Positions 36,117-52,190 of a DNA stretch of 64,000 nt are shown here, one piece after another. Below the pieces are notes generated by a model that saw only the letters and a list, made by a program, of their open reading frames with translations, was not told the origin of the DNA and ran no database searches. The stretch is from sequence record MN850590.1; one strand, 5' to 3'. The translations under genes were made by a program, and so were the position numbers. This DNA comes from Escherichia phage moha. How positions within the stretch are numbered: position 1 is the first letter of the stretch; each line of letters begins with the position of its first letter.

Positions 36117-36191
36117 GGCCCTGTAGCTCAATGGGAGAGCTGTCAGCTCATAACTGATAGGTAGCTGGATCGAAACCAGCCAGGGTCACCA
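36117..36191 (+). tRNA. tRNA with CAT anticodon (Met, or Ile2 if C34 is lysidinylated)
   Basis: Manual fold: acceptor GGCCCTG/CAGGGTC, D-stem GCTC/GAGC, anticodon stem GTCAG/CTGAT with loop CT-CAT-AA, T-stem GCTGG/CCAGC, discriminator A and encoded CCA. Confidence 0.8.
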
Positions 36192-36194
36192 ATC

Positions 36195-36271
<77 letters not shown>

Positions 36272-36289: not shown

Positions 36290-36634
36290 ATGAAAGGCAA
36301 TATTTATCTGGTAGTTCATGACTTAACGTTTTATTTTAACGAACGTGAAACAGTTATTTCCGACCGGTTGATTAATTCGTTATATCAACACGCTGATTAC
36401 GTTTATTTCCAAAATGAATTTGGCCATTGGAAGTTTCTTAAAAACCGTTCAGGGTTAACTAGTTTTGAATACTTTGACCGTAAAGACCTTTTAAACGAAA
36501 TTCCATTACAACATCGGTTCCAGAAACGCGAATCACTATACTATTGTCGTCATATACCAAATGCTGAATGTGTTAATGAAGCGATTAATCTATGGCGGCG
36601 GCGTCGAGAGCAAATTGATGATATGCCAAAATAA
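36290..36634 (+). CDS. hypothetical protein (114 aa)
   Basis: Start taken at the ATG after GAGGAAAA, downstream of tRNA-Arg; the ORF track start (36242) overlaps the tRNA. Confidence 0.5.
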   Translation: MKGNIYLVVHDLTFYFNERETVISDRLINSLYQHADYVYFQNEFGHWKFLKNRSGLTSFEYFDRKDLLNEIPLQHRFQKRESLYYCRHIPNAECVNEAINLWRRRREQIDDMPK

Positions 36635-36639
36635 GAAGC

Positions 36640-36944
36640 CGGGTCGCTACCGGCAAGTCGTCGGACTGATGTTCCCTGAGTAAGGACTGGTCTTAATAAA
36701 TCTTTACGATTTGTTAATATCCCCTTACATCACAGCAGAAACGGCGCACCGAATTATCGATTCGAGGAAATATCTTTGCCGTAAGCCGAGTAGCGTTTTT
36801 GACGGAACGTTCGGATATGGTCGAGATATGGCCTTTTAAAAATATTGAGTAGCGTCAACTGCTTAATAACCGGGTTCGAATCCCGGCGTTTCGTACAAAC
36901 ACTTGCCTTAGCAGGTGGAACCCCGACAAGGTTGCCGCAAGGCT
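36640..36944 (+). ncRNA. candidate structured stable RNA region
   Basis: About 300 nt with no credible ORF, containing several hairpins and a canonical tRNA T-arm motif (CCGGG-TTCGAAT-CCCGG at 36870-36886), ending at a strong terminator. Confidence 0.25.
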
Positions 36945-36978
36945 TAGCCCCTTCCGAAAGGTCGGGGCTTTTTGGCAT
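36945..36978 (+). terminator. rho-independent terminator (34-nt sequence repeated exactly at 52157)
   Basis: TAGCCCCTTCCGAAAGGTCGGGGCTTTTTGGCAT: GC-rich stem, GAAA loop, T5 tract. Confidence 0.8.
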
Positions 36979-52156: not shown

Positions 52157-52190
52157 TAGCCCCTTCCGAAAGGTCGGGGCTTTTTGGCAT
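52157..52190 (+). terminator. rho-independent terminator (exact copy of the 34-nt element at 36945)
   Basis: TAGCCCCTTCCGAAAGGTCGGGGCTTTTTGGCAT. Confidence 0.8.

Follow-up and report, generated by a model that had tools for sequence, protein, structure and literature searches.

The locus

The window analysed here, a 64,000-nucleotide stretch of Escherichia phage moha (MN850590.1), is DNA of a T4-like phage. Its plus strand carries two tRNA genes, tRNA-Met (36117-36191) and tRNA-Arg (36195-36271), both called by ARAGORN and by the Rfam tRNA model (59.4 and 71.1 bits for the pair). These are the upstream members of a transcription unit that, judged by alignment, encodes orthologues of two T4 stable RNAs: rnaD (RNA D, species 2; about 120 nt), at 36631-36750; and rnaC (RNA C, species 1), at 36757-36895. 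The A/U-rich spacer GAAUUA (36751-36756) runs from rnaD to rnaC. Next on the same strand come a conserved 3' trailer (36896-36944) and an intrinsic terminator (approximately 36945-36975), located by a terminator scan.

The initial annotation had proposed that this stretch, which it placed before a terminator, might be the counterpart of two stable RNAs encoded by T4. Both points are borne out. The terminator is a hairpin with a T-run at about 36946-36975. The T4 reference annotation (NC_000866) lists rnaD (T4s002) at 71053-71171 and rnaC (T4s001) at 70908-71046, directly after tRNA-Arg, and alignment to that sequence equates window positions 36631-36750 with rnaD and 36757-36895 with rnaC. The record for Mosigvirus ATK47 annotates rnaC at the matching position. 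(The ends of both RNAs are carried over from the T4 annotation, with a possible error of 1-2 nt.)

T4 shares the order of elements: rnaD, spacer, rnaC, trailer, terminator. In both phages rnaD lies immediately 5' of rnaC, here across a 6-nt spacer, and rnaC closes the series of RNA genes in the tRNA transcription unit, ahead of the terminator. Identity to T4 is 86.8% for rnaD and 98.6% for rnaC (137 of 139 positions); the trailer and the terminator match T4 at 93.9% and 90%, respectively. The T4 and window rnaC sequences therefore differ by two substitutions; their order, their placement on the tRNA strand, and their predicted fold are equal. Outside the cassette, T4 identity is about 33% immediately upstream, and the alignment is lost past the terminator. 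Because identity collapses on both sides, the rnaD-rnaC-trailer-terminator cassette reads, in sequence comparison, as an island of conservation amid mosaic surroundings. The region is 100% identical to that of Escherichia phage vB_EcoM-172859UKE1 and 97.8% identical to that of ATK47, and a blastn search with it matched 806 phage records, nearly all from T4-type enterobacterial phages. Stable RNAs C and D beside tRNA genes are already known from T4, and in this respect the locus is textbook T4 biology.

The window differs from T4 in one feature of its arrangement: an inserted ORF (36290-36634) separates the unit from tRNA-Arg. T4 rnaD starts 1 nt past tRNA-Arg, whereas rnaD here starts inside the stop codon of the upstream ORF. 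This ORF is similar to RB69ORF150c; T2 also has an ORF between tRNA-Arg and rnaD, but T4 does not. Its stop codon (36632-36634) falls within the annotated 5' end of rnaD, and therefore rnaD would here be excised from the 3' end of an mRNA.

Coding potential

The region had been described as lacking any ORF with a plausible start or ribosome-binding site. Mechanical ORFs do exist, two of 42 and 49 amino acids on the plus strand, each with a TTG start, and one of 74 amino acids on the minus strand, with an ATG start; no ORF is conserved. Gene callers have placed CDSs here in many GenBank records, with up to four 'hypothetical protein' features, as though the region encoded small proteins. The lengths and frames of these ORFs are not conserved among close relatives, however; the frame of the 74-amino-acid ORF, for example, is shortened to 37-40 codons in T4, VR7, and ZCEC15. 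Moreover, the substitutions that separate the homologues compensate RNA helices, and T4 produces stable RNAs from the homologous DNA. Protein coding was rejected on the first of these grounds, and small proteins are an exceedingly improbable explanation for the region.

The rnaC fold

Folding energies set the region apart from dinucleotide shuffles, with z-scores of -5.5 for the whole stretch, -4.55 for rnaC, and -3.49 for rnaD. Together with compensatory changes in both RNAs, this upholds the original description of a structured non-coding region. By the measure of covariation, both rnaC and rnaD are folds under selection.

For rnaC, 21 distinct copies were aligned, drawn from nine genera (Tequatro-, Mosig-, Gapriver-, Moon-, Karam-, Winkler-, Gelderland-, Kanagawa-, and Marfavirus) and from uncultured and metagenomic contigs, and the fold was evaluated with RNAalifold and by explicit pair counting. 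Of the alignment cells at the 40 pairs of the model, counted over all 21 sequences, 97.6% pair; slid partners give 37-48%. Compensatory change is found at 19 of the 40 pairs, and none of 500 shuffles matches the observed values. The rnaC covariance model, R1, finds rnaC over its full length at 160.7 bits as its sole match in the window, which is itself a seed sequence of the model.

The structure supported by these comparisons is that of a tRNA mimic with a predicted four-way junction. The true 5' and 3' ends form a 7-bp acceptor stem, 36758-36764 (CGAUUCG) with 36887-36893 (CGUUUCG), stacked on a canonical T-arm, CCGGG-UUCGAAU-CCCGG (36870-36886). The stem includes two central U·U mismatches, which are invariant; at its third pair, 16 sequences have G·C and the other 5 have A·U. 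The remainder comprises four elements: a 3-bp AGG/CCU stem (36765-67 with 36832-34); a long arm of about 66 nt (36768-36831) with the apical loop UUGACG; an A-rich linker (36835-36842); and a 10-bp arm with the loop CGUCAA (36843-36868), in which eight pairs show compensatory change. The long arm and the 10-bp arm fill the positions of the D-arm and the anticodon arm. All nine genera share the same hexaloops, U·U mismatches, and linker (the paired hexaloop change of the Marfavirus clade is described below). The sequence of the long arm is wholly replaced in Gelderland-, Kanagawa-, and Marfavirus rnaC, with a hairpin of similar length kept.

The initial annotation had noted the T-arm, CCGGG-TTCGAAT-CCCGG, and the 7-nt strand CGTTTCG that follows it, and both lie as given above. 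It paired the latter with CGGAACG as an acceptor-like stem. That sequence is indeed present at 36803-36809, although the distance to the 3' strand is 84 nt from 36803 rather than 92. The proposed stem, counted as 36802-09 with 36887-94, can form in this sequence and is 87.5% pairable, but all 500 shuffles do as well. It lacks any compensatory change, the fourth of its pairs is broken in 13 of the 21 homologues, and the maintained 5' strand is 36758-64. Positions 36802-09 belong instead to the hairpin at the tip of the long arm. The same annotation reported that no anticodon arm is present. There is indeed no 7-nt anticodon loop, and neither ARAGORN nor the Rfam tRNA model calls a tRNA here; yet its place is taken, at 36843-36868, by an arm of 10 bp that covaries and has a loop of 6 nt.

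Copies of rnaC vary at the acceptor end and in the T-loop. In T4-type copies the acceptor stem is followed by U-ACA, in those of the Marfavirus clade by an encoded U-CCA. Winklervirus-type rnaC (L010 1126-1267; L081 5958-6099; L140 4201-4342) has a T-loop of UGCAUCC or UGCAUGC in place of UUCGAAU. Because these copies retain every other element, the canonical T-loop appears dispensable.

Complementary hexaloops

The two invariant loops of rnaC can pair with one another. The loop UUGACG (36799-36804) is the proposed kissing partner of CGUCAA (36853-36858), and six of six pairs are possible in all 21 rnaC sequences. Both loops differ in F48 and related contigs of the Marfavirus clade, reading UUGGCG with CGCCAA, so that G·C stands in place of an A·U pair. 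The matched loop pairs have duplex energies of -5.5 and -7.6 kcal/mol. The cross-combination UUGACG/CGCCAA reaches only -0.4 kcal/mol, so that nearly all duplex energy is gone; the other, UUGGCG/CGUCAA, retains a G·U pair and has -4.9 kcal/mol. Moreover, UUGACG is kept in the rnaC of Melville and PEi26, though the remainder of the arm is replaced.

Metagenomic sequences agree with this pattern. A one-sided loop change was seen in none of 20 genuine IMG/VR rnaC copies harvested by acceptor sequence alone, and IMG/VR and JGI metagenomes yielded no loop variants beyond the two known states. (Matches to the first loose IMG/VR loop-variant pattern were mostly due to chance.) Together, these comparisons, with their one independent covariation event, suggest a probable 6-bp loop-loop contact, intra- or intermolecular, which would lock the shape of rnaC.

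Relation to tRNA and other tRNA-like RNAs

Rfam 15 holds no family for rnaC or rnaD. The Infernal/Rfam search that had been recommended for this region matched no family and no tRNA within it: whether run with the gathering threshold or with a cut-off of E <= 10, it gave only weak, chance-level matches beyond the upstream tRNAs. Within the tRNA clan the highest score was that of tRNA-Sec, 16.6 bits where the threshold is 47, and RF00005 (gathering threshold 29 bits) found no tRNA in the rnaC/rnaD stretch. ARAGORN reported just the two upstream tRNAs in the window and no tmRNA, and Rfam likewise gave no tmRNA at E <= 10.

The resemblance of rnaC to tRNA (RF00005) nevertheless extends to several features: a 7-bp acceptor stem; a 5-bp T-stem with a UUCGAAU loop, abutting the acceptor 3' strand; a predicted four-way junction; location in a tRNA operon; and, in one clade, an encoded U-CCA. 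Unlike tRNA, rnaC is about 139 nt long, lacks both a D-arm and a 7-nt anticodon loop, and carries two U·U mismatches in its acceptor stem. Its non-acceptor arms appear to pair mutually, which would replace the elbow formed in tRNA by the D-loop and T-loop.

Other non-decoding RNAs mimic the acceptor/T end of tRNA. In the tRNA-like domain (TLD) of tmRNA, the tRNA-like structures (TLS) of plant viruses, and the bacterial YrlA/Y-RNA-like molecules, a pseudoknot or kissing lock replaces the tRNA arms. In its modelled fold rnaC resembles these, an acceptor/T mimic with a putative tertiary lock, although no sequence or Rfam relationship connects it to any of them. It differs from each in particulars: it has no tag reading frame, unlike tmRNA; it does not lie at a viral genome 3' end, unlike a plant-virus TLS; and its ends make an acceptor stem rather than the Ro-binding stem of YrlA/Y-RNA-like molecules.

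The rnaD fold

From comparison of its homologues, rnaD is predicted to consist of a 5' hairpin and a long irregular hairpin with an interchangeable central arm. Positions 36638-36654 hold the 5' hairpin, GCCGG-gtcgcta-CCGGC, which had first been placed 11 nt further along, at 36649-36665. The long hairpin is closed by a conserved helix of 7 bp, GUCGUCG (36657-36663) with CGGCG-C-AC (36742-36749). T4 rnaD and window rnaD have these helices in common; their cores are 94-100% identical (the 3' core 100%), whereas the central arm (approximately 36681-36725) is only 73% identical. Among T4-type copies, a nearly invariant core bears at least three unrelated versions of the central arm.

With the rnaD covariance model, R2, the window reaches 143.6 bits; it is again one of the seed sequences. 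More distant copies were aligned by fitting to the model, which favours the model's own structure, and this applies to the counts from the resulting alignment, A7 (17 sequences): compensatory change at 13 of 22 pairs, and 95.9% of cells paired as against 30-46% with slid partners. When divergent copies are included, the compensated pairs extend to the innermost pair of the closing helix. Covariation across related phages, which the initial annotation had named as a check, is thus present in both RNAs.

Weaker but significant matches to the covariance model, at 22-37 bits, identify rnaD-like elements in tRNA clusters of the Moon-, Karam-, Marfa-, and Winklervirus type. Copies checked against tRNA maps place the element after tRNA-Asn in KM16, SonariX, and F48. 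Four of these elements lie at L004 558-661, L003 (SonariX) 408-509, L008 691-786, and L138 2877-3006, and all four lack an rnaD annotation. The first three are inside Moon-, Karam-, and Marfavirus tRNA clusters, 3' of tRNA-Asn.

On the minus strand, the rnaD 5' hairpin (36638-36654) and the TTCTTATTTT that follows it are scored as resembling an intrinsic terminator. With the adjoining genes on the plus strand, this is probably incidental.

Part of the T4-type rnaD sequence recalls known RNA motifs. CUGAUG and GAAA flank the variable helix, and the internal loop, GACUGAU / WGAAA, has a sole variable position, which corresponds to N7 of the hammerhead. On this basis rnaD might be taken for a ribozyme of the hammerhead type or for a k-turn RNA of the box C/D type. 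However, the hammerhead A9 and the G10.1-C11.1 pair are missing, and rnaD has just two helices and no cleavage site. Rfam returned no ribozyme match for rnaD even at E <= 10, and no target for the rnaD arms was found in the window. The divergent rnaD-like copies, moreover, have lost CUGAU/GAAA, with CAGCUU/AAAUA in KM16 and CACUUUA/AAAUA in SonariX; these internal loops refute the motif as a family-wide feature. We give almost no credence to either identity for rnaD.

Selected RNAs or by-products

Both RNAs might instead be functionless by-products of tRNA processing, with rnaC a decayed tRNA gene and rnaD an inter-tRNA spacer that persist because tRNA processing releases them. They do occupy tRNA places at tRNA-like spacing; some genera are without one of the two, as in Dhakavirus, which has rnaD without rnaC; and 50 years have passed without a function being found (PMC3014915). 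Yet decay would not be expected to leave compensatory changes in 19 rnaC pairs and 13 rnaD pairs, nor hexaloops, U·U mismatches, and a linker that are invariant over nine genera. Arms have been swapped whole while the core and the apical loop were kept, and a convergent adaptive SNP has been reported in rnaD (PMC12685909). A decaying pseudogene would not be expected to maintain its structure by compensatory change; the initial annotation's suggestion of a tRNA-derived pseudogene is not supported, on these grounds and in view of the invariant loops. On balance, the by-product account is unlikely, and selection for the RNA folds is the preferred explanation.

Trailer and terminator

The trailer contains a hairpin, CACUUGC-CUUA-GCAGGUG (36900-36917), followed by GAACCCCGACAAGGUU. 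Its core (approximately 36898-36936) is essentially invariant in nine phages, with differences only in the hairpin loop. In Dhakavirus the trailer stands directly 3' of rnaD, with no intervening rnaC. The terminator, a hairpin with a T-run, ends the tRNA/rnaD/rnaC transcription unit; one of its stem pairs covaries (C·G to G·C).

Two further features were noted. The 34-nt terminator hairpin (36945-36978) recurs exactly at 52157-52190, about 15 kb downstream, and the terminator module therefore serves a second locus. In addition, the trailer segment CCCCGAC (36921-36927) is able to pair with the terminator 3' strand GUCGGGG (36961-36967); in T4 this trailer segment repeats the 5' strand of the terminator in direct orientation. 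Possible readings are an alternative fold, a signal for processing, or an sRNA derived from the 3' end.

The last of these could be extended to the locus as a whole, one or more parts of which might act as a base-pairing regulatory sRNA. The best candidate is the trailer plus terminator (36896-36975), as a 3'-end-derived sRNA of the Hfq type: it finishes in a stem-loop and U-tail, and its trailer core is invariant in nine phages and kept even where rnaC is absent. That invariance also fits a termination or processing signal, however, and the analysis found no target. The rnaC hexaloops are not free to serve as sRNA seeds, since they are complementary to each other. A regulatory sRNA is a very unlikely reading of any part of the locus.

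Distribution and spread

In every phage considered, rnaC and rnaD are on the tRNA strand, within tRNA clusters or ending them, and 0-7 nt separate them from a directly adjoining tRNA. In Karam-, Moon-, and Gelderlandvirus, rnaC sits between tRNA-Trp and tRNA-Gly, with spacers of 5-7 nt. In Dhakavirus, rnaD is fused to the trailer and terminator, and rnaC is absent. The size of the GAAUUA spacer matches that of the leader/trailer spacers between tRNAs in these clusters; in other genera an equal spacer of 5-7 nt follows the ...CCA end of a tRNA.

No host origin was found: blastn against 5,426 complete E. coli genomes gave no matches. A pattern scan of 185,579 species genomes, which detects only copies that keep the conserved acceptor sequence, gave only chance matches of 15 bits or less.

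Database records label the two RNAs in several ways. In SonariX (L003 1554-1648), rnaC is mis-annotated as a 95-nt tRNA-Met because ARAGORN uses the false stem of the 36802-09 type. Other GenBank records cover the region with 'tRNA-OTHER', with aberrant tRNAs, or with up to four 'hypothetical protein' CDSs. These annotations over rnaC and rnaD are systematic errors that a covariance model would fix.

The pattern of conservation has also to be weighed against horizontal spread. Gene conversion of the SegB homing type in mixed infections might drag the cassette from phage to phage, so that its conservation would reflect homing rather than selection on the RNAs. The island of 87-99% T4 identity, against about 33% just upstream and with the alignment lost after the terminator, speaks for this account. 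Homing endonuclease genes are present in several of these tRNA clusters, and the T-arm DNA of rnaC (36872-36882) contains GGTTCGAATCC, the core motif of SegB, whose recognition core has been given as GGTTCRANTCC (PMC2330249). The near-identity of rnaC in T4 and in the present phage, a Mosigvirus, could come in part from gene conversion around a SegB homing site; rnaC could be cleavable in co-infection with segB-carrying phages, which would help to homogenise the cassette. Horizontal spread nevertheless leaves two observations unexplained: compensatory changes among copies with only about 69-84% identity, and structure kept in arms whose sequence has been replaced. As a replacement for RNA selection we consider it improbable. 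The two are compatible rather than exclusive.

Expression, processing, and function

Eight tRNAs, together with the species I and II RNAs, derive from the primary transcript of the T4 cluster, in which species I is the last RNA before termination (PMC2330249). RNAC and RNAD have been classed as late RNAs of T4, with validation by northern blot (PMC9697503). By analogy with this literature and with tRNA-operon biology, rnaD and rnaC of the window would be co-transcribed with the tRNA genes. The suggestion in the initial annotation of a processing substrate fits this arrangement, in which the RNAs lie in tRNA operons at tRNA-like spacing. The acceptor/T minihelix of rnaC may be read as a tRNA, such that RNase P would cut the 5' end and trimming of the 3' end would follow. 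The fold of rnaC and the tRNA-like spacing make its excision as a tRNA the most likely route. Presumably rnaD is the structured piece that remains between two processing sites, and both RNAs might accumulate stably because their ends are buried in helices.

The literature searched assigns no function to rnaC or rnaD, and reviews call their roles unknown (PMC3014915). One observation hints at a function of rnaD. When phage BW1 was evolved on E. coli ECOR34, an identical rnaD SNP arose in three of three independent lines; virulence increased sharply, the relative-bacterial-growth (RBG) value changing from 0.17 to 0.98 (PMC12685909).

Deletions of the T4 tRNA region are viable on laboratory hosts, and for this reason any role of rnaC or rnaD would be conditional. 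Because rnaC conserves its acceptor/T end and its putatively locked shape, and not the sequences of its arms, it might serve as a decoy, a tRNA look-alike that does not decode, for some factor that recognises the acceptor/T end. The target could be a host defence toxin directed at tRNA, or else a processing or modifying enzyme. For its part, rnaD might contribute to host-specific infection efficiency. This pair of roles, decoy for rnaC and host efficiency for rnaD, is a speculative guess that we hold with low confidence.

A stronger version would make both RNAs counter-defence genes that act as RNA: rnaC a purpose-built, anticodon-less decoy that titrates a factor attacking tRNA ends, and rnaD an anti-host element. 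The acceptor end of rnaC would then be made distinctive by its U·U internal loop, its U discriminator, and the CCA or ACA that follows. An Abi- or toxin-type tRNA nucleotidyltransferase or nuclease would be one example of a target. The role of rnaD would be to set host range, at which the convergent BW1 SNP may hint. Counter-defence in this full form is rather unlikely.

The reading that best accommodates the evidence as a whole is that the window encodes orthologues of T4 rnaD and rnaC, with folds under selection and processing of the tRNA type, and with a possible decoy role for rnaC. We regard this joint reading as highly probable, its decoy component being, as above, a low-confidence guess.

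Implications

The finding of rnaC and rnaD in a T4-like genome is in itself ordinary. What is added here is a structural model supported by covariation, a wider distribution of rnaD-like elements, and mutants for testing. Rfam families for the two RNAs being absent, covariance models would clean the annotations of hundreds of phages. The rnaD-like elements reach genera not known to carry rnaD. Finally, the predicted fold of rnaC, with its true acceptor stem, U·U pairs, and hexaloops, offers concrete mutants with which to approach a 50-year-old question.
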